A DNA stretch of 35,320 bases from a virus (Duplodnaviria > Heunggongvirae > Uroviricota > Caudoviricetes). The DNA lies in IMG/VR virus record IMGVR_UViG_2869970738_000004; one strand, given 5' to 3'. Each line of letters opens with the position of its first letter. Within the stretch, counting starts at the first letter, position 1. Below, in pieces: positions 1 through 32,752 of the stretch. Both the position numbers and the translations under genes were made by a program. The notes beneath the pieces are model-generated. The model ran no database searches. It saw only the letters and a program-made list of their open reading frames with translations, and was not told where the DNA came from.

Positions 1-141
1 TTACTGCTTACACTGTAAGAACGCCGCAAACTCCGCTCCCCAGAAGCTCATCCGTATTTCGCACAGCGAACCGTGCAGCATCCAGATGATGAGGATTGCC
101 GTCACGCAGAACGTGATGGCCGTAAGCGATTTTTGCGACAT
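1..141 (-). CDS. Hok/Gef-family type I toxin homologue (46 aa, below ORF-track size cutoff)
   Basis: Reverse-strand ORF from ATG (139-141) to TAA (1-3) translates to MSQKSLTAITFCVTAILIIWMLHGSLCEIRMSFWGAEFAAFLQCKQ: polar N-terminus, one TM helix, then the SLCE..(E)xAAF..C tail typical of Hok proteins; AAGGAG RBS about 8 nt upstream. Confidence 0.5.
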   Translation of the reverse strand: MSQKSLTAITFCVTAILIIWMLHGSLCEIRMSFWGAEFAAFLQCKQ

Positions 142-492
142 AGCGCTTGCTCCTTTTTCGGGGAGGCGCTAACCTATCACTTGCTTAGGGTAGACGGTTA
201 GGGCCTCGGTTAAACAAAAATGTTTTCCGGGGCCTTTCCACATCTGGCCTTCAGGTATTCCCTCCGACCATCAGCCGAAAGGCACCCGCGCGTAATCTAT
301 CGCTTTTTTGTTACTCCGGCAATTCTGCTCGTTAATTCTGAGGTAAGGGCAAACTCATCTGATTGTTTCCTCTGTGTGAAGTTGGCAGTTCATGCCACGG
401 GTAGACTGGCCCCCTGAATCTCCAGACAACCAGTATCACTTAAATAAGTGATAGTCTTAATACTAGTTTTTAGACTAGTCATTGGAGTACAG

Positions 493-858
493 ATGATTGA
501 TGTCTTAGGGCCGGAGAAACGCAGACGGCGTACCACACAGGAAAAGATCGCAATTGTTCAGCAGAGCTTTGAACCGGGGATGACGGTCTCCCTCGTTGCC
601 CGGCAACATGGTGTAGCAGCCAGCCAGTTATTTCTCTGGCGTAAGCAATACCAGGAAGGAAGTCTTACTGCTGTGGCCGCCGGAGAACAGGTTGTTCCTG
701 CCTCTGAACTTGCTGCCGCCATGAAGCAGATTAAAGAACTCCAGCGCCTGCTCGGCAAGAAAACGATGGAAAATGAACTCCTCAAAGAAGCCGTTGAATA
801 TGGACGGGCAAAAAAGTGGATAGCGCACGCGCCCTTATTGCCCGGGGATGGGGAGTAA
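493..858 (+). CDS. insC: IS2 transposase OrfA (InsC)
   Basis: Track ORF 448-858; recognised InsC sequence begins [26 protein letters not shown] at ATG 493. Confidence 0.9.
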
Positions 859-1721
859 GCTTAGTCAGCCGTTGTCTCCGGGTGTCGCGTGCGCAGTTGC
901 ACGTCATTCTCAGACGAACCGATGACTGGATGGATGGCCGCCGCAGTCGTCACACTGATGATACGGATGTGCTTCTCCGTATACACCATGTTATCGGAGA
1001 GCTGCCCACGTATGGTTATCGTCGGGTATGGGCGCTGCTTCGCAGACAGGCAGAACTTGATGGTATGCCTGCGATCAATGCCAAACGTGTTTACCGGATC
1101 ATGCGCCAGAATGCGCTGTTGCTTGAGCGAAAACCTGCTGTACCGCCATCGAAACGGGCACATACAGGCAGAGTGGCCGTGAAAGAAAGCAATCAGCGAT
1201 GGTGCTCTGACGGGTTCGAGTTCTGCTGTGATAACGGAGAGAGACTGCGTGTCACGTTCGCGCTGGACTGCTGTGATCGTGAGGCACTGCACTGGGCGGT
1301 GACTACCGGCGGCTTCAACAGTGAAACAGTACAGGACGTCATGCTGGGAGCGGTGGAACGCCGCTTCGGCAACGATCTTCCGTCGTCTCCAGTGGAGTGG
1401 CTGACGGATAATGGTTCATGCTACCGGGCTAATGAAACACGCCAGTTCGCCCGGATGTTGGGACTTGAACCGAAGAACACGGCGGTGCGGAGTCCGGAGA
1501 GTAACGGAATAGCAGAGAGCTTCGTGAAAACGATAAAGCGTGACTACATCAGTATCATGCCCAAACCAGACGGGTTAACGGCAGCAAAGAACCTTGCAGA
1601 GGCGTTCGAGCATTATAACGAATGGCATCCGCATAGTGCGCTGGGTTATCGCTCGCCACGGGAATATCTGCGGCAGCGGGCTTGTAATGGGTTAAGTGAT
1701 AACAGATGTCTGGAAATATAG
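816..1721 (+). CDS. insD: IS2 transposase OrfB (InsD); normally expressed as InsCD by -1 frameshifting
   Basis: 301-aa ORF with integrase-core transposase sequence (…[37 protein letters not shown]…); overlaps insC in -1 frame. Confidence 0.9.
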
Positions 1722-1732
1722 GGGCAAATCCA

Positions 1733-1928
1733 ACGGGATGCCCTCTGATGAGTGAATGGGGGAGGCGTGCTTTGAAGTGAATTTGTGGAAGGCTTCCAGT
1801 GTTGAGAAACATACGCCGCATTCTAGATTGTTACACTGATAATACTTTTGTCTCACGGTGTTTGAATCATTTTCCGGACGACTGGTGCGGATACGGGCAG
1901 ATGCGCCACAAAGCGGACAACGGAACAT
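1733..1928 (-). pseudogene. ogr: Ogr/Delta-family zinc-finger late-gene activator, interrupted by IS2 at about codon 66; remaining 3' codons lie at 332-396
   Basis: N-terminus MFRCPLCGASARIRTSR…YYQCNNLECGVCF matches the Ogr C-x2-C…C-x4-C zinc-finger pattern; the track ORF tail [12 protein letters not shown] is read from the IS2 right end; reading across the TSD restores an 86-aa frame ending …IPWHELPTSHRGNNQMSLPLPQN. Confidence 0.75.
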
Positions 1929-2063: not shown

Positions 2064-5000
2064 TTATTCTGATGTCACTCTTTGCGAGTGAGCTATTTTT
2101 AAATCAGCGTTTCCTTCAAATACTACATTCAACTCATAGTTAAGAGTTAGCTTGAATTTATCTGAGTCACTTTTGATATTCTCTGAAGTGACATTTACTA
2201 ACTTATTATTATCATATTCTCTAATAATTAATTTAGTGAAGTAGTTATCCTTTACCACAAGAGAAAATGGTTGATTAACAAATGGTAAGAAGTAAACCTT
2301 ACGGGTACCGGATTCAGTAGTTATGTTCATAGAGCCATCATCATTTTTTCTCATTAGTTCTCTGAGGTTGGGATTATCGAAAAGCATACGATTATATTGC
2401 TGAAAGATCTCTTTACTCATCACAAGAACCAGTTTGCCAGCCAAGTCAGCAGATGATTTTATGTGATCAATCAACATATTGAAATCTTCTATTACGGTAT
2501 GTTGCGAACAGCCAGTGCTAAATAAATTTGAAAGTATTATTCTCTGGATGTCCTTGAGAATTAAGTCTGCTTGAATATCACCTTCATTGATATAAGGGAT
2601 GGATTCTATTCCTTCGGCATACGGTTCTTTATCTATCTTAATAGATATCTTATGTTTTGTGAAACAATCGCTAGCCTGCTTAAAATCAATAGATTTGAAA
2701 AGTGAAAGAGGGAGCGTTTTCTTGATGCGTTTACGAAGATGTTCTGATGTTTTACGTGCAGTGCTATCTAGTCGATGTACATCTATGGCAGCATCCTGAA
2801 GTCTCATATCAAGATCTTTCTTTAGCATGTTAATATGCTCTTGAAGCAACTTTCTTAAGTTTTCTTTTTTTGTTTGGAGATCGTCCAATGTTAAAGTCAG
2901 CTTGATTTTAGTATATTCGATGGAGTTACAAATTTTTGATAATACTCCAATGAGTCGTTGCTTCTCACGATATGTTATATAGTTGTTTTCTATTGCTTCT
3001 TTTATTTCTTTTGATACGCTATCGTTCTTGTTAGGAAAAATTAATAATAGCTGAACCCATGATTGTTCCATATCAATAAATCCACAGTCAAAAACATTAC
3101 TGTAAACTCTGCCCATCACCATGTCTGTTTTATCATAGTCACGTAAACGCCTTGCTAAACTATTCATCCACCCATTGTGTTCCATATTTTCAGACCATGT
3201 CCACAGGCAGATTCTAATTAATATCTTGATTAGTTGGCTTGCATTATCAATTTCTTCAGTGGGAGTTTCATATCCACCGGTTTGGTCAATAAGTTTACCC
3301 TCTAAAATAAGTTTAATGTAATGTGTCATTAGTTTGTCAGAAGTATTGATTCTTGATGTCAGATAAAGACATGTGCATATACGCATGTCAGTCAACGCAT
3401 TTATGATGGCAATATTGAACCACTCTCTGTCTGAATTGAAGTTTAGTTTTTTGGATATGAAAAAACCCGGGTTAAAAAGCTGGCCTTTGTAACTGTATTT
3501 TTCTACCGAATGGCTGTCAATATTCATTGAGTGCTGCCATCGGTTAATAAGATCGACGGCTGTATCAATAGTAGAAGGATCGCGAGTCTGTGTTGCATCA
3601 ATAATCATCGATGGAAGTTCTTGTAGTTGCGTTTTGCAAAATAATTCAAATAAATCTGAATTCTCTGTATTGCAGAAACGAAAGTTTATGCTTTCTTGAT
3701 ATTGCTCCCAAACAGTGGTATAGGTTCTTAATATACGATTATAACGTGAACGAAGCGAGGCATTTAAGAGTGATTGGTTGTTTCGGAACCATTCTGTTAA
3801 TATTGACCATTGTGAACGAGTAATTCCCATATAGATACAAAGTTCATTGCTGATAAGATGTTTTCTATTATTGATAATACGCACTCCGCTCCAAAGACAT
3901 AATTCAAAAAATCTTTCAGAAAGATTAATTTTATCCATGGAATTATTTGATATTTTATAAACTTCATCTGAAAACTCATATTGAAAACTCCGTTCAAATA
4001 ATTCTGTAGTGATCAGTAAGAAGTTATTGTTGGTATTATCATCTTGAAAAAAATACAAATCGCAGAGATTATTAAAGTTATTAATTAATGCAGAGATAGC
4101 ATTGTCAAAACTAATGAGATCAGAATCCCGCAGATACATATACGTATCTGCTGTTATAGCCTGCATTGTAAGACTTACGGAAAAATCTCCTCCTTTAATC
4201 GGAGCCCTATAAAAACATTGCTTAAGTATTTTTATTAATAAGCTGTCTGGTTTGATATTTTTAACGCTAAAAAGTATCTTACCCGTGGATTCTGTTTCTT
4301 TTGTACGATTATCACCAATGACAAATGACGCAAAATGATTCTTCTTTTTTAGTTGGTAATTAATAAGATTAAGAGTAAGTTGAAAAGGACGGTGATATAA
4401 ACTTAACTCATCTTCCTTAGAATAACTGCTAGCCACAGATATGTATTCTCCTTTGTAATCGGCTTGCTTGATTTCTAAATTTGAATAGTTATGTTTTTGA
4501 TAGATAGGGTATAACCTAAGCTTGGCTGAGATTTTGTTACAAATATGGGGCATTACTATTTCGAAGGCAATGTATCGCTTTATAATTATTTGCCGTTTTA
4601 CATCATCAAGAATTTCAAGACTCACGATAAAGAACCAAATAGAAAGAACTATGTTTATCAAAAGCCATAATATGCTGATTAGACAAGCTATACCATAAAG
4701 ATAACTTCCAAAGACAGTTTTAATTAGTACACTGAGAAGTATAAATCCTGATAAGAAAAGCCCGCTGAGTCCAGCAAGCATGAATCCTGAGTAACGCTGA
4801 TAAGCAGTTTGGGCTATTTTTCTATCTGCCTTTTTTTGGAATAAGATACTTACTAAACCTATAACAAGGGGGTATACAATACCAATAATTGTCAATTGGC
4901 CACTTAAAATGGTTGTTTGCCATTCGGTTAATGAATGCCTAAACGGGAAATAATGTAAAAGATTATTTTTTATAAATAATTCGTTTAAATATCCAACATA

Positions 5001-5183
5001 AAGTAGTACAAATGAAAAAGCTGATATGCAAAGTACTGATTTAACCGGTGAGGATGTTAATCTTATGATGTTTTTTTCAATAAAATTCCATTTTAAATTC
5101 GAATAAAATGGATTTTTAACCATTTTATTACGAACATAGTTCTTTGCTAAAATCTCTGTTGCACTTAAAAATTGTCCAATCAT
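2064..5183 (-). CDS. Hypothetical 1039-aa membrane-anchored protein, AT-rich accessory gene between D and ogr; candidate defence/abortive-infection factor
   Basis: Single uninterrupted ORF; nucleotide composition clearly more AT-rich than flanking phage genes; four hydrophobic helices at about residues 49-190 followed by about 850 aa of Asn/Lys/Ile-rich soluble sequence; no canonical Walker A (GxxxxGK[ST]) seen. Confidence 0.8.
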   Translation of the reverse strand: MIGQFLSATEILAKNYVRNKMVKNPFYSNLKWNFIEKNIIRLTSSPVKSVLCISAFSFVLLYVGYLNELFIKNNLLHYFPFRHSLTEWQTTILSGQLTIIGIVYPLVIGLVSILFQKKADRKIAQTAYQRYSGFMLAGLSGLFLSGFILLSVLIKTVFGSYLYGIACLISILWLLINIVLSIWFFIVSLEILDDVKRQIIIKRYIAFEIVMPHICNKISAKLRLYPIYQKHNYSNLEIKQADYKGEYISVASSYSKEDELSLYHRPFQLTLNLINYQLKKKNHFASFVIGDNRTKETESTGKILFSVKNIKPDSLLIKILKQCFYRAPIKGGDFSVSLTMQAITADTYMYLRDSDLISFDNAISALINNFNNLCDLYFFQDDNTNNNFLLITTELFERSFQYEFSDEVYKISNNSMDKINLSERFFELCLWSGVRIINNRKHLISNELCIYMGITRSQWSILTEWFRNNQSLLNASLRSRYNRILRTYTTVWEQYQESINFRFCNTENSDLFELFCKTQLQELPSMIIDATQTRDPSTIDTAVDLINRWQHSMNIDSHSVEKYSYKGQLFNPGFFISKKLNFNSDREWFNIAIINALTDMRICTCLYLTSRINTSDKLMTHYIKLILEGKLIDQTGGYETPTEEIDNASQLIKILIRICLWTWSENMEHNGWMNSLARRLRDYDKTDMVMGRVYSNVFDCGFIDMEQSWVQLLLIFPNKNDSVSKEIKEAIENNYITYREKQRLIGVLSKICNSIEYTKIKLTLTLDDLQTKKENLRKLLQEHINMLKKDLDMRLQDAAIDVHRLDSTARKTSEHLRKRIKKTLPLSLFKSIDFKQASDCFTKHKISIKIDKEPYAEGIESIPYINEGDIQADLILKDIQRIILSNLFSTGCSQHTVIEDFNMLIDHIKSSADLAGKLVLVMSKEIFQQYNRMLFDNPNLRELMRKNDDGSMNITTESGTRKVYFLPFVNQPFSLVVKDNYFTKLIIREYDNNKLVNVTSENIKSDSDKFKLTLNYELNVVFEGNADLKIAHSQRVTSE

Positions 5184-7883: not shown

Positions 7884-8359
7884 TGGCTGTGCCAAAACAT
7901 CTTCGCTTTTTTACGCTGTTTGTGGATGGTGAAAACGAAGTGGGTAATGTGACGTCCGTCACTCTGCCTAAGCTGACGCGCAAAACCGACAGCTACCGGG
8001 GTGGTGGCATGATGGGTGCGGTAAGTATTGATCTCGGTCTGGACGACTCCGCGCTTGATGCGAGCTTTGTCATGGGGGCGCAGTTCGTGAGCTGTTCCTT
8101 AAGTATGGCGGCACGATTGACGGCACGCTGCTGCGTTTTGCGGGTGAATACTACACCGATGCAGAAAGCGACCTGTATGAAGTCGAAATGCGCGGACGTG
8201 TGACGGAAATTGATATGGGGGAAGCCAAACAGGGCGAAGCCACATCACACACTTACGCCATTAAAACACCTACTACAAGCTGAGTGTTAACGATCGCCCG
8301 TTGTGGGAGATTGACCTGCTGAACTTCATTTACCGGAAGGACGGGGTAATGACTCCAAC

Positions 8360-8737
8360 TTATTGATAGTGTTTTATGTTCAGATAATGCCCGATGACTT
8401 TGTCATGCAGCTCCACCGATTTTGAGAACGACAGCGACTTCCGTCCCAGCCGTGCCAGGTGCTGCCTCAGATTCAGGTTATGCCGCTCAATTCGCTGCGT
8501 ATATCGCTTGCTGATTACGTGCAGCTTTCCCTTCAGGCGGGATTCATACAGTGGCCAGCCATCCGTCATCCATATCACCACGTCAAAGGGTGACAGCAAG
8601 CTCATAAGACGCCCCAGCGTCGCCATAGTGCGTTCACCGAATACGTGCGCAACAACCGTCTTCCGGAGCCTGTCATACGCGTAAAACAGCCAGCGCTGGC
8701 GCGATTTAGCCCCGACGTATCCCCACTGTTCGTCCAT
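8360..8737 (-). CDS. insB: IS1 InsB reading frame (expressed as InsAB' by frameshifting)
   Basis: 125-aa [51 protein letters not shown]…. Confidence 0.85.
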
Positions 8738-8781
8738 TTCCGCGCAGACGATGACGTCACTGCCCGGCTGTATGCGCGAGG

Positions 8782-9057
8782 TTACCGACTGCGGCCTGAG
8801 TTTTTTAAGTGACGTAAAATCGTGTTGAGGCTAACGCCCATAATGCGTGCAGTTGCCCGGCATCCAACGCCATTCATGGCCATATCAATAATTTTCTGGT
8901 GCGTACCGGGTTGAGAAGCGGTGTAAGTGAACTGCAGTTGCCATGTTTTACGGCAGTGAGAGCAGAGATAGCGCTGATGTCCGGCAGTGCTTTTGCCGTT
9001 ACGCACCACCCCGTCAGTAGCTGAACAGGAGGGACAGCTGATAGAAACAGAAGCCAC
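8782..9057 (-). CDS. insA: IS1 InsA
   Basis: 91-aa [46 protein letters not shown]…. Confidence 0.9.
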
Positions 9058-9225
9058 TGGAGCACCTCAAAAACACCATCATACACTAAATCAGTAAGTT
9101 GGCAGCATCACCGAAGGACGGCAAGGACATTGTGCCCGATCGCATCCGTTCCGCGCTTGGGCTTGGCTGATAAGTAATATGCTGGCGGCGCAGTGCGTCG
9201 CCTCTGACTGAAAAGGAGACAACAG

Positions 9226-15712: not shown

Positions 15713-15840
15713 CGTTAAATACTCCCCGCGTTATACCACGTCCCATTAATGCAATACTGAATTGGCCTTGCCTGTGTTGTATCAATTAATTCATCACGGT
15801 TTCCGTTAACTGAACCCGTAACGACGGTAATGACTCCAAC

Positions 15841-16218
15841 TTATTGATAGTGTTTTATGTTCAGATAATGCCCGATGACTTTGTCATGCAGCTCCACCGA
15901 TTTTGAGAACGACAGCGACTTCCGTCCCAGCCGTGCCAGGTGCTGCCTCAGATTCAGGTTATGCCGCTCAATTCGCTGCGTATATCGCTTGCTGATTACG
16001 TGCAGCTTTCCCTTCAGGCGGGATTCATACAGTGGCCAGCCATCCGTCATCCATATCACCACGTCAAAGGGTGACAGCAAGCTCATAAGACGCCCCAGCG
16101 TCGCCATAGTGCGTTCACCGAATACGTGCGCCACAACCGTCTTCCGGAGCCTGTCATACGCGTAAAACAGCCAGCGCTGGCGCGATTTAGCCCCGACGTA
16201 TCCCCACTGTTCGTCCAT
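15841..16218 (-). CDS. insB: IS1 InsB reading frame
   Basis: Protein identical to copy 1. Confidence 0.85.
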
Positions 16219-16262
16219 TTCCGCGCAGACGATGACGTCACTGCCCGGCTGTATGCGCGAGG

Positions 16263-16538
16263 TTACCGACTGCGGCCTGAGTTTTTTAAGTGACGTAAAA
16301 TCGTGTTGAGGCTAACGCCCATAATGCGTGCAGTTGCCCGGCATCCAACGCCATTCATGGCCATATCAATAATTTTCTGGTGCGTACCGGGTTGAGAAGC
16401 GGTGTAAGTGAACTGCAGTTGCCATGTTTTACGGCAGTGAGAGCAGAGATAGCGCTGATGTCCGGCAGTGCTTTTGCCGTTACGCACCACCCCGTCAGTA
16501 GCTGAACAGGAGGGACAGCTGATAGAAACAGAAGCCAC
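16263..16538 (-). CDS. insA: IS1 InsA
   Basis: Protein identical to copy 1. Confidence 0.9.
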
Positions 16539-16793
16539 TGGAGCACCTCAAAAACACCATCATACACTAAATCAGTAAGTTGGCAGCATCACCCGTAACG
16601 ACATAACCTGACCTGTCAGACCAGCCGGGACCATTCCATGTCTGAACAGATGACAGACCGCCAAGGCGAATACCTGTAATAAACCTTGAGTTACATTCTG
16701 CCCGCGTATATGCACCAACATCTCCCGCTGAAGGTTTTCGTGTCGTGGTATAGAAATCTGACCAACCTAATTCAACCCGGTAATGACTCCAAC

Positions 16794-17171
16794 TTATTGA
16801 TAGTGTTTTATGTTCAGATAATGCCCGATGACTTTGTCATGCAGCTCCACCGATTTTGAGAACGACAGCGACTTCCGTCCCAGCCGTGCCAGGTGCTGCC
16901 TCAGATTCAGGTTATGCCGCTCAATTCGCTGCGTATATCGCTTGCTGATTACGTGCAGCTTTCCCTTCAGGCGGGATTCATACAGTGGCCAGCCATCCGT
17001 CATCCATATCACCACGTCAAAGGGTGACAGCAAGCTCATAAGACGCCCCTGCGTCGCCATAGTGCGTTCACCGAATACGTGCGCAACAACCGTCTTCCGG
17101 AGCCTGTCATACGCGTAAAACAGCCAGCGCTGGCGCGATTTAGCCCCGACGTATCCCCACTGTTCGTCCAT
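16794..17171 (-). CDS. insB: IS1 InsB reading frame
   Basis: 125-aa ORF. Confidence 0.85.
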
Positions 17172-17215
17172 TTCCGCGCAGACGATGACGTCACTGCCCG
17201 GCTGTATGCGCGAGG

Positions 17216-17491
17216 TTACCGACTGCGGCCTGAGTTTTTTAAGTGACGTAAAATCGTGTTGAGGCTAACGCCCATAATGCGTGCAGTTGCCCGGCATCCA
17301 ACGCCATTCATGGCCATATCAATAATTTTCTGGTGCGTACCGGGTTGAGAAGCGGTGTAAGTGAACTGCAGTTGCCATGTTTTACGGCAGTGAGAGCAGA
17401 GATAGCGCTGATGTCCGGCAGTGCTTTTGCCGTTACGCACCACCCCGTCAGTAGCTGAACAGGAGGGACAGCTGATAGAAACAGAAGCCAC
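17216..17491 (-). CDS. insA: IS1 InsA
   Basis: 91-aa ORF. Confidence 0.9.
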
Positions 17492-17964
17492 TGGAGCACC
17501 TCAAAAACACCATCATACACTAAATCAGTAAGTTGGCAGCATCACCATTCAACCCCATAACCATCATGAGCCGACCTGTAGGAAATGCCACCATTTTTAT
17601 AATTCACACGGAATTGTACGGCAGGACAGCTACCAGCATTTATATTAAAGTGAAGAATTAATGCAGATGCACCACCAATCAGGGCGTTATATGCACTACT
17701 ATCCCAATTCCATCCAATGGATGTATCACCATTAACAGTATTACCTGTTTGTCGGAGTGCAAATGCATTGACATTTTTGGCACTAATTGAAATATCGCTA
17801 GAACCATCAAAACCAACTCCAGCAATTTTTCGTGCTGTTTTCAGCTTTGTTGCAGTAGCGGCATTGCCGGACAGTTCCCCAGAAAGGCCACCGCTGAATG
17901 TTTGTCGATTGGTCCAGGTATTCGCTGTACTGAGTAACGGTATTTTCTCCCCGCTTGTGCCGAG

Positions 17965-24158: not shown

Positions 24159-25927
24159 GATGGCAAAGCGTAACAGGCTGATACAAAGGGCTTTTGTTGT
24201 AAGAAAACGGCCAGAACAGAGGGTTAAGGAGAACAGTTTCGCGCGCGGGTAATCTTCCTGTAATTACTCAGGGGAGCAATGATTCAGGACGCTTTTGTGC
24301 GCCAGCGTGCGCGGCAACTTTACTGGCAGGGTTATCCGCCCGCAGAAATATCACGTCTGATGGGAATAAACCCGAACACGATTTATGCGTGGAAAAAACG
24401 TGACCAGTGGGATGAAACGCCACCCGGGCAGCGTGTCACGCAGTCCATCGATGCGCGCCTCATCCAGCTTACTGAAAAACAGAATAAAACAGGCGGTGAC
24501 TTTAAGGAAATAGACCTGCTGACCCGGCAGCTTAAAAAGCTGCATGATGGCCAGCCGGATGTGATGGCCGCAGGAAAGAAAGGCCGGGCGAAAAAACTCA
24601 AAAATCATTTCACGCCGGAACAGATTGCCGCACTGCGGGAAAAAATCATCAGCAGGCTGGAGTGGCATCAGCGGGGCTGGTTTGACTCCCTGACCCTTTG
24701 CAGGGAAGCCGGGATACGTAACAGGATGATCCTGAAATCCCGACAGATTGGGGCGACCTGGTATTTTGCACAGGAAGCACTGCTGATGGCGCTGCGTGAC
24801 GATGTGGCGCAACCTTACCAGCGTAACCAGATTTTTTTGTCTGCGTCGCGTCGTCAGGCGTTCCAGTTTAAAAGCATTATTCAGAAGGCGCGGCTGAAGT
24901 TGATGTGGAGCTGAAAGGGGGCGATAAAATCATCCTCTCCAACGGCGCAGAGCTGCATTTTCTCGGCATTTCTGCTGCGTCGGCACAGTCCTATACGGGC
25001 AATTTTTATTTTGATGAATTTTTCTGGGTCAGTCGCTTTGCTGAACTGCGCAAGGTGGCTGGCGCTATGGCAACCCTCAGCGGACTGCGGCGCACCTACT
25101 TCTCCACGCCATCCACCGAAACGCACGAGGCATACGCCTACTGGAACGGCGACCGCTGGAACGAGAAAAAGGCCTCGCATAAACGCCAGCGTTTTTCTGT
25201 GGACTGGAAAACGCTGCATAACGGGCTTATCTGCCCTGACCGGACGTGGCGGCAAATTGTCACGCTGGAAGATGTGGTTAATCACGGCTGGAAACACACC
25301 GATATCGACGAAATTCGTGATGAAAACACCGAAGACGAGTTCCTCAATCTCTATATGTGCGAGTTTGTCCGCGAAGGGGAATCGGCATTTAACCTGAATA
25401 TCCTGATTGGCTGCGGCGTTGACGGATACGACGACTGGAAAGACTGGAAACCTTTTGCTCCCCGCCCGATGGGGAATCGTCCGGTATGGATTGGGTATGA
25501 CGCAAACGGCAGCAGTGGCAACGGCGACAGCGGCGCTGTGTCCGTGGTGGTTCCTCCGTCTGTTCCTGGTGGCCGTTTTCGAACGGTGGAGACGCGACGC
25601 GTTCAGGGGCTGGAGTTTGAAGAACAGGCCAGAGTCATTGAAGAGTTCACGTGTCGCTACAACGTGGAACACATCGGCATTGATGTGACGGGCGGGAACG
25701 GGGAGGCTGTTTATCAGATAGTGAAACGGTTTTTCCCTGCCGCTATTCCGTACACCTTCACGCTGTCATCAAAACGGTCGCTGGTACTGAAAATGCTGCA
25801 AATAATGCGTGCCGGGCGGTGGGAATACGATCGCGCCGAACGCGAGCTGGTCGCGGCCTTTAACGCCGTGCGGGTGATGCTGCCAACTTACTGATTTAGT
25901 GTATGATGGTGTTTTTGAGGTGCTCCA

Positions 25928-26203
25928 GTGGCTTCTGTTTCTATCAGCTGTCCCTCCTGTTCAGCTACTGACGGGGTGGTGCGTAACGGCAAAAGCACTG
26001 CCGGACATCAGCGCTATCTCTGCTCTCATTGCCGTAAAACATGGCAACTACAGTTCACTTACACCGCCTCTCAGCCCGGTACGCACCAGAAAATCATTGA
26101 TATGGCCATGAATGGCGTCGGATGTCGTGCCAGTGCACGCATTATGGGCGTTGGCCTCAACACGATTTTACGTCACTTAAAAAACTCAGGCCGCAGTCGG
26201 TAA
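25928..26203 (+). CDS. insA: IS1 InsA
   Basis: 91-aa ORF. Confidence 0.9.
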
Positions 26204-26247
26204 CCTCGCGCATACAGCCGGGCAGTGACGTCATCGTCTGCGCGGAA

Positions 26248-26625
26248 ATGGACGAACAGTGGGGATACGTCGGGGCTAAATCGCGCCAGCGCTGGCTGTT
26301 TTACGCGTATGACAGGCTCCGGAAGACGGTTGTTGCGCACGTATTCGGTGAACGCACTATGGCGACGCAGGGGCGTCTTATGAGCTTGCTGTCACCCTTT
26401 GACGTGGTGATATGGATGACGGATGGCTGGCCACTGTATGAATCCCGCCTGAAGGGAAAGCTGCACGTAATCAGCAAGCGATATACGCAGCGAATTGAGC
26501 GGCATAACCTGAATCTGAGGCAGCACCTGGCACGGCTGGGACGGAAGTCGCTGTCGTTCTCAAAATCGGTGGAGCTGCATGACAAAGTCATCGGGCATTA
26601 TCTGAACATAAAACACTATCAATAA
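26248..26625 (+). CDS. insB: IS1 InsB reading frame
   Basis: MDEQWGY… portion of track ORF 26122-26625. Confidence 0.85.
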
Positions 26626-26805
26626 GTTGGAGTCATTACCCGCCGTGCGTAAGGTGAAAACACCGGGCGGCTTTATCACTTACGAAACGGACCGAGCGAG
26701 GGGGATCAGCCACGGCGACCTTGCGTGGGTAACCATGCTTGCTGTCATTAACGAACCGATTGGCGGCGAAGGAGAAAACGAGCGTTTCACGGTTATGGAG
26801 TTCTG

Positions 26806-32487: not shown

Positions 32488-32752
32488 AACCGAAGAACAC
32501 GGCGGTGCGGAGTCCGGAGAGTAACGGAATAGCAGAGAGCTTCGTGAAAACGATAAAGCGTGACTACATCAGTATCATGCCCAAACCAGACGGGTTAACG
32601 GCAGCAAAGAACCTTGCAGAGGCGTTCGAGCATTATAACGAATGGCATCCGCATAGTGCGCTGGGTTATCGCTCGCCACGGGAATATCTGCGGCAGCGGG
32701 CTTGTAATGGGTTAAGTGATAACAGATGTCTGGAAATATAGGGGCAAATCCA
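32488..32752 (+). mobile_element. IS2 right-end fragment (about 265 bp; 3' part of insD plus right end), abutting IS911
   Basis: Matches the complete IS2 from about 1468 to 1732; encodes …[19 protein letters not shown]…NRCLEI. Confidence 0.9.

Follow-up and report, generated by a model that had tools for sequence, protein, structure and literature searches.

The window analysed here is a 35,320-nt stretch of tailed-phage DNA (Caudoviricetes; IMG/VR record IMGVR_UViG_2869970738_000004) whose left end carries, on the reverse strand, a 46-codon open reading frame (ORF), its leader, and an ogr gene split by IS2 (Table 1). A sequence-only reading of the window had placed a Hok-like ORF with a good ribosome-binding site at positions 1-141, the ogr stop codon at 332-334, and IS2 about 70 bp further on. 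These coordinates were right: AGGAG lies at 154..150, the ogr stop corresponds to that of an intact ogr coding sequence at an identical, IS-free locus (VG38-53E1; L001 4332-4592), and the measured distance from the stop to IS2 (402-1732) is 68 bp. The same reading described the toxin gene as unannotated, which holds only for its own ORF track, since public annotation calls the gene routinely (WP_000078916.1). The window begins exactly at the hok stop codon and ends exactly at the integrase stop codon, which suggests that it was cut on annotated gene boundaries. For this allele, the fbi element, the terminator, and the attachment site were read from the VG38-53E1 locus, which is 100% identical over window positions 1-401, and not from the window's own source.

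Table 1. Features of the hok/sok locus and of the insertion sequences in the window (L001, the VG38-53E1 locus).
Feature	Position	Strand	Details
hok toxin coding sequence	1..141	(-)	46 aa, MSQKSLTAITFCVTAILIIWMLHGSLCEIRMSFWGAEFAAFLQCKQ; single transmembrane helix; Cys12, Cys27, Cys44; SLCEIR and EFAAFLQC motifs; assigned by Pfam, K-12 alignment and coding periodicity
Local hairpin	142..169	(-)	AGCGCCUCC...GGAGCAAGCGCU; hok Shine-Dalgarno paired with upstream CUCC in the full-length minimum-energy fold
Predicted Sok promoter	147..175	(+)	-35 TTGCTC 147-152, 17-nt spacer, -10 TAACCT 170-175, 7 nt, G183
hok Shine-Dalgarno AGGAG	150..154	(-)	8 nt before ATG 141..139; read directly, conserved in alignment
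24-codon upstream ORF	169..243	(-)	ATG 243..241 (mRNA +45), TAG 171..169, 30 nt before hok ATG
Predicted Sok RNA, ~60 nt	183..243	(+)	5' single-stranded tail 183-~199, hairpin 200-236, tail CUUUCCACAU
ucb-like element	229..238	(-)	GAAAGGCCCC; mRNA +50..+59; alternative partner of the 5' end
Third, weaker partner of the 5' end	248..267	(-)	mRNA +21..+40; -12.5 to -16.8 kcal/mol; third-best in 11/15 relatives
tac-like mRNA 5' end	276..287	(-)	GGGUGCCUUUCG; predicted +1 at 287; Rfam RF01794 match begins here
Predicted hok promoter	294..322	(-)	-35 TTGCCG 322..317, 17-nt spacer, -10 TAGATT 299..294
ogr 3' fragment	332..401	(-)	stop 332-334, 10 nt upstream of hok -35; intact ogr at L001 4332-4592, identical sequence
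IS2 in ogr	402..1732	(+)	1331 bp; 5-bp target duplication ACGGG at 397-401 and 1733-1737
ogr 5' fragment	1733..1928	(-)	interrupted by IS2
768-bp IS copies (four, one inverted)	8345-9112; 15826-16593; 16779-17546; 25873-26641		
IS2 end fragment	32488-32752		265 bp

In format the peptide is a Hok: about 50 residues, a single transmembrane helix near the N terminus, and the Cys, (S/D)LCE, and E-AAF signatures conserved in the family. It matched the Pfam family HOK_GEF (PF01848) over profile positions 5-42 of 42 with 29.9 bits (E = 4.1e-7), above the gathering score of 22 bits. It also aligned with the chromosomal and plasmid toxins: identity was 43.5% to K-12 HokA, only 22-30% to HokB-E, and 39% over 31 aa to R1 Hok, for which an approximate query was used. 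Positions C12, S25-L26-C27-E28, E37, A39-A40-F41, and C44 are kept in comparison with K-12 HokA-E and phage homologs; the transmembrane Cys and the motifs SLCE and E-AAF-(A/Q)C are common to the peptide and the K-12 paralogs. HokA is by these comparisons the nearest K-12 paralog, yet the peptide would not be classed as a HokA ortholog, as it scored 34 bits against a cut-off of 89 with the NCBIfam equivalog model NF007290. Among PADLOC models, none matched the Hok peptide.

We aligned the locus with 15 relatives of 74-100% DNA identity taken from different contexts. The hok ORF is intact in these diverged relatives, with 45-47 codons, and its substitutions at codon positions 1, 2, and 3 (0.26, 0.15, and 0.345) follow a coding pattern. 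A chance ORF was excluded by this periodicity together with the Pfam score above the gathering threshold. Judged from its sequence, the small reverse-strand gene is a genuine Hok-family membrane toxin.

Upstream of hok, the sequence-only reading had expected mok/sok-type control elements within positions 142-331, and this expectation was borne out in part: tac-like and ucb-like elements, a predicted Sok promoter and RNA, and an Rfam match were found there, but neither a mok frame overlapping hok nor the fold-back-inhibition (fbi) element. The latter lies instead downstream of the hok stop codon, outside the window. Thus a Hok-family alignment and leader elements, the two things whose absence was to have spoken against the call, are both present.

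The predicted hok promoter keeps its position and spacing in the relatives; the DNA upstream of it is unrelated between contexts, so that homology begins at the promoter. Its placement puts the predicted mRNA +1 at G287. A generic promoter/terminator scan missed both this promoter (8/12 matches) and the Sok promoter, so that both were assigned by positional homology and conservation. The sequence GGGTGCC occurs at the predicted mRNA 5' end in 15/15 relatives. When mRNA nt 1-13 (GGGUGCCUUUCGG) were scanned against all 20-nt windows of the message, the two strongest partners in every one of the 15 relatives were a 3' element and the segment +50..+59. The 3' (fbi) element, located 52-64 nt downstream of the hok stop codon and ending in GGCACCC or a variant with one base changed, was the best or second-best partner in 15/15 relatives, at -17.4 to -21.6 kcal/mol. 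The ucb-like segment +50..+59 followed at -13.7 to -18.4 kcal/mol, ranking second in 10/15 relatives and first in 5/15. The third, weaker partner (Table 1) is a candidate strand of a metastable co-transcriptional hairpin, a role assigned from the R1 model (PMC9841398). A terminator hairpin lies downstream of fbi, and the two occupy 52-110 nt beyond the window's left edge.

These pairings translate into a predicted switch. In the minimum-energy fold of the full-length mRNA, nt 1-12 pair with nt 340-352, and when the mRNA is cut at nt 326, nt 1-11 switch to nt 50-59. [quoted passage not shown] The bases that flank the invariant tac core co-vary (CGAU/AUCG, CGAC/GUCG, UUUGGC/GCCGGA). Taken column by column, the seven core pairs of the tac-fbi helix are invariant and the flanking pairs shift register between subgroups; we used per-sequence duplex scans for this helix because column-wise covariation was uninformative. 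For the consensus structure, which was tested on the very alignment from which it was derived, 96.1% of cells were paired against only 38-47% in slid controls, and 15 pairs had changed on both sides against 8.2 +/- 1.9 in shuffles (0/500). Helix 1 of the consensus (tac/ucb) was 97.7% paired, with two pairs changed on both sides.

The local hairpin that encloses the hok Shine-Dalgarno sequence in the full-length fold shows one-sided, G-U-preserving changes in the alignments. The RNAalifold consensus differs at this hairpin, pairing the GCCUC columns with GAGGC as in the truncated form. Predicted accessibility of the Shine-Dalgarno sequence is nearly constant, at 0.21 in the full-length and 0.26 in the truncated mRNA, and it is mostly paired in both folds.

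On the hok strand, the whole length of the Rfam model RF01794 could be aligned to positions 287..128, with 46 bits (E = 1.4e-8). The leader falls short of the gathering score of 59, and the K-12 loci reach 84-118 bits; the score marks a divergent relative. Mean pairwise difference among the relatives is 0.19 in the leader and about 0.25 in the hok coding sequence, so the leader is the more conserved of the two. The family is named "sok antitoxin (CssrC)", yet at K-12 hokC, hokB, and hokE (L004, L005, and L008) its match covered the sense strand between the 5' end of the mRNA and the start codon of hok, and not the strand of the annotated sokC, sokB, and sokE. RF01794 is therefore a model of the hok leader despite its name, and annotations derived from it will put "sok" on the wrong strand.

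A candidate was found for the antisense promoter that the sequence-only reading thought worth searching for in the leader. Its geometry, TTGnnn-17-TAnnnT-7-G, is that of the annotated K-12 sokB (TTGCCG-17-TAAGAT-7-G) and sokE (TTGCCT-17-TACCAT-7-G), and the predicted layout is kept in 15/15 relatives. By consensus the promoter is weak, with three of six positions matching in the -10 element TAACCT. The RNA predicted to start there has a 3' end near position 243, placed by homology with sokB and sokE, and would be complementary to mRNA +45..+105. In all 15 relatives the predicted Sok is about 60 nt long, with a free 5' tail of 13-17 nt and one hairpin of -22 to -31 kcal/mol, the upper stem of which varies between subgroups with compensating changes and stays paired. 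A cis-encoded antisense RNA with its own promoter in the leader, as hok/sok systems have, is thus predicted at this locus. Expression of both hok and Sok from this allele is predicted throughout.

What the leader lacks is a canonical mok. No leader ORF starting from ATG, GTG, or TTG overlaps hok or reaches its start, and at the site equivalent to the K-12 mokC start there is no start codon. The leader does contain a 24-codon upstream ORF, whose stop codon directly precedes the CUCC strand that pairs with the hok Shine-Dalgarno sequence. Its AUG lies inside the predicted Sok target; base-paired in the fold of the full-length mRNA, it becomes exposed in that of the truncated one (probability unpaired, 0.08 vs 0.66). 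On account of this fold-dependent exposure and of its position in the Sok target, the upstream ORF could serve as a displaced mok, and according to the modelled folds it may substitute for mok in this allele. The frame itself is variable. The +45 ATG is absent in two of the 15 relatives and opens 1, 8, 15, 19, 24, 28, 78, or 79 codons in the other 13; a frame that overlaps all of hok occurs in only 2/15. An E. albertii locus (L013) and E. coli AVS0756 at the flk site (L030) have a canonical-looking mok of 78-79 codons opened by this ATG, and in two further relatives (L034 and L035) a stop codon follows it immediately. The frame is switched by small indels within the Sok hairpin loop. Across the 15 relatives, the region of the upstream ORF showed no coding periodicity. 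In R1, Hok synthesis requires translation of mok at least up to the hok Shine-Dalgarno sequence (PMC9841398). The authors of a recent Hok survey considered Mok prediction not trivial and did not attempt it (bioRxiv 10.1101/2025.08.07.668861).

Whether the module is prophage cargo or part of the host locus beside the attachment site had been left undecided by the sequence-only reading, which suggested following the DNA leftward. The VG38-53E1 locus allowed this extension. There, a 25-bp direct repeat, GGCCGCTCTGCGGCCTTTTTTCTTT, occurs at the ihfA terminator and upstream of btuC and brackets the prophage; the hok stop lies 261 bp inside the left repeat, so that the att core would be at about -285..-261 in window terms. 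The left end of the prophage is thus about 260-285 bp further left than position 1, and the hok/sok module is therefore truncated by the window, with the 3' UTR, fbi, and terminator outside. The order D-(cargo)-ogr-hok recurs in prophages beside prpB and beside flk, so that the ogr-hok arrangement is found at three integration sites (ihfA, prpB, and flk). Among phage records, hok is present in P88 and the ogr-hok pair in Chuche. The att repeat, the three integration sites, and the phage genomes together settle the matter in favour of cargo, and we read the module as an accessory that a P88-like prophage (Xuanwuvirus, P2 family) carries at its ogr-proximal end. The module alone, from promoter region to terminator, also turned up elsewhere: an O157 island and an IncI1 plasmid carry it, as do lambdoid prophages, in which it lies beside lom or separates gpJ from the tail-fibre gene. 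Because it occurs alone in such diverse mobile elements, the moving unit is taken to be a hok/sok cassette of about 450 bp.

Several further observations concern the two ends of the prophage and its cargo slots. About 220-360 bp to the left of the window, Rfam STnc540 matched the VG38-53E1 locus (L001 3639-3783, plus strand) with 41.3 bits against a gathering score of 38; the match overlaps the ihfA 3' end and terminator, and the 25-bp att core as well. By this match the phage would integrate into, and regenerate, the end of an sRNA or 3'-UTR element. Between the integrase gene and the right att repeat of VG38-53E1 (L038 101-900) lie two hypothetical genes of 363 and 438 bp, which form a second small cargo slot at the opposite prophage end, just outside the window. 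Between ogr and a gpD-like late gene, the window carries a 1039-aa ORF (2064-5183, reverse strand) that matched nothing in Pfam or PADLOC and that PGAP labels "MFS transporter" in the identical locus. Its slot is variable, holding a DUF2971 protein in E. coli AVS0756 (L030) and being empty in L029 and in phage Chuche; it looks like a P2-type cargo hotspot with an uncharacterised large protein.

The prophage in the window is defective. Its ogr gene is split by IS2, and it carries an additional IS2 fragment and four 768-bp copies of an element that we take to be IS1 from its typical ORF pattern, a load reminiscent of Shigella. VG38-53E1 has no IS2, and ogr is annotated there at the equivalent of 332-592. 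The exact IS2/ogr junction was found in none of the complete E. coli genomes in the collection. Despite this load, the hok locus shows no difference (100% identity) from its counterpart in IS-free prophages.

The gene and its setting are widespread. RefSeq lists exactly this protein as WP_000078916.1, "Hok/Gef family protein"; at least 1000 contigs of the protein collection encode it, and it also goes by "protein HokA" there. The 404-bp hok-ogr junction (at least 80% coverage) was found in 1183 of 5426 complete E. coli genomes, and among the records listed it is annotated as Hok/Gef beside ogr. Phages P88, P884B11, 500465-2, and Chuche carry hok at 95-97% identity, and labels in phage records include "MokW-like host killing" and "hok/gef family protein". 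A relative is encoded by 198 of 50,697 phage records, mostly Stx-converting lambdoid phages with 74% protein identity. According to a recent survey, prophages are about four-fold enriched in hok (bioRxiv 10.1101/2025.08.07.668861). The module is already known in this sense: the exact protein is in RefSeq and in deposited phage genomes, and the prophage enrichment of hok is published.

On the E. albertii plasmid pEA5_1 (L036) the module is decayed, with a stop at hok codon 2, an internal deletion, and a degraded 3' UTR; the copy is nonetheless annotated as "hok/gef family protein" (33 aa). Near-identical enterobacterial hok loci also occur in records labelled Planococcaceae, Vagococcus (a 226-kb contig), Xanthomonas pisi, and Moraxella osloensis (L010, L011, L014, and L017); contamination or mislabelling of the assemblies, and not horizontal transfer, is the most likely cause.

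Comparison with characterized systems places the locus near R1 hok/sok (parB). Shared with R1 are a small Hok/Gef membrane toxin, a stable mRNA with tac/fbi and alternative tac/ucb pairing (PMC9841398; predicted here), a hairpin hiding the hok Shine-Dalgarno sequence, and a predicted cis-antisense RNA of about 60 nt with a 5' tail, one hairpin, and a promoter within the leader. In contrast, R1 Hok has 52 residues rather than 46, its gene resides on a plasmid rather than in a prophage, and R1 has a mok ORF overlapping hok, which this locus lacks. Among the K-12 loci, hokA encodes the closest protein and hokB/sokB and hokE/sokE have the closest Sok layout. Both Cys residues of the HokB-type disulfide (bioRxiv 10.1101/2025.08.07.668861) are hard-coded here, as in HokA. 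The K-12 leaders share the RF01794 match, but K-12 mokB and mokC overlap their hok genes and no such frame exists here; moreover, the present hok travels with phages and plasmids, and the K-12 copies stay at fixed positions in the chromosome.

[quoted passage not shown] We considered equating the present gene with hokW and did not adopt this, as the same paper describes HokW as 51 aa long, and 44% identical to R1 Hok, against 46 aa here. Going by the length given there, HokW would be more like HokD than like the present clade. A homolog of 46 aa with 74% identity to the window's toxin is likewise found in Stx phages.

We consider it very likely that the locus is a hok/sok-type type I toxin-antitoxin module carried as cargo of a P88-like prophage. 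By analogy with R1, the full-length mRNA would be locked by pairing of its 5' and 3' ends, so that neither translation nor Sok binding takes place. Slow trimming from the 3' end would remove fbi, upon which the 5' end would move to the internal box and the mRNA would become open to Sok and to ribosomes. As long as the prophage is present and transcribed, short-lived Sok would pair with the hok mRNA, and the duplex would be destroyed. Sok synthesis could stop when the element is lost, when an infecting phage shuts off transcription, or when the prophage is induced; the pool of stable hok mRNA would then be translated, and Hok would depolarise the inner membrane and kill or lyse the cell. The benefit to the phage is likely prophage stabilisation, exclusion of other phages by abortive infection, or both. 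Of 45 Hok homologs tested in the recent survey, 42 were toxic (bioRxiv 10.1101/2025.08.07.668861), and R1 hok/sok lowers the plating of T4, as cited in PMC8621323. Chromosomal hokA, hokB, and hokC have been reported unable to mediate post-segregational killing, as cited in bioRxiv 10.1101/2025.08.07.668861.

A different main role, namely aiding lysis at induction like hokW-sokW of Sp5 rather than addiction or defence, is in our judgement rather unlikely. It draws on the findings, in PMC8621323, that after mitomycin C sokW RNA is lost and HokW is synthesised in a RecA-dependent manner and that phage release is halved without the hokW-sokW locus, and on the position of hok directly downstream of ogr, the late-gene activator. 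HokW as described there, however, would belong to a different subfamily from the 46-aa peptide by its length and its identity to R1 Hok, and in the window ogr has been lost to IS2 and the prophage is laden with IS elements, yet hok is unchanged from that of IS-free prophages. Such identity despite IS decay would be expected if the benefit did not depend on lytic growth, or if the decay were simply recent.

Improbable, in our view, is that the module is a silent relic, in which hok mRNA is made but Hok can never be translated, mok having been lost, and the module would only hitch-hike with the phage. The missing canonical mok and the unconserved length of the upstream ORF would fit such a relic, given that translation of mok up to the hok Shine-Dalgarno sequence is mandatory in R1 (PMC9841398), as would the predicted pairing of the hok Shine-Dalgarno sequence in both folds and the failure of chromosomal hokA, hokB, and hokC in post-segregational killing, as cited in bioRxiv 10.1101/2025.08.07.668861. 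Against it stand the intact hok ORF with its coding periodicity in 15 diverged relatives, the non-coding leader that is even more conserved than the coding sequence, the RNA helices that keep pairing through compensatory changes, the spread of the module across several kinds of mobile element, and the toxicity of nearly all tested homologs (42/45; bioRxiv 10.1101/2025.08.07.668861). A truly dead copy, moreover, is recognisable by comparison, as on plasmid pEA5_1 with its stop at codon 2 and decayed 3' UTR. Finally, there is virtually no chance that hok is a host gene flanking the attachment site, as its position as the last gene before the window's edge might suggest. This reading is refuted: in the identical locus the att repeat lies beyond the hok stop, at the ihfA terminator, and the ogr-hok pair recurs at prpB, at flk, and within the genomes of P88 and Chuche.

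To return to the reading as prophage cargo, that the toxin module has stayed intact while IS elements dismantle the rest of the prophage fits a role in addiction or defence. Beyond correct annotation the significance of the locus is slight. We put forward only tentatively that the 46-aa toxins form a phage-borne Hok clade without mok, in which Sok controls Hok by a route other than a coupled overlapping frame. Sok might then block the variable upstream ORF, or a site some 100 nt before hok at which ribosomes load as at a standby site; alternatively, control might be purely by refolding of the mRNA and degradation of the duplex. A clade without a canonical mok would pose a small, testable question of how Hok translation is gated.
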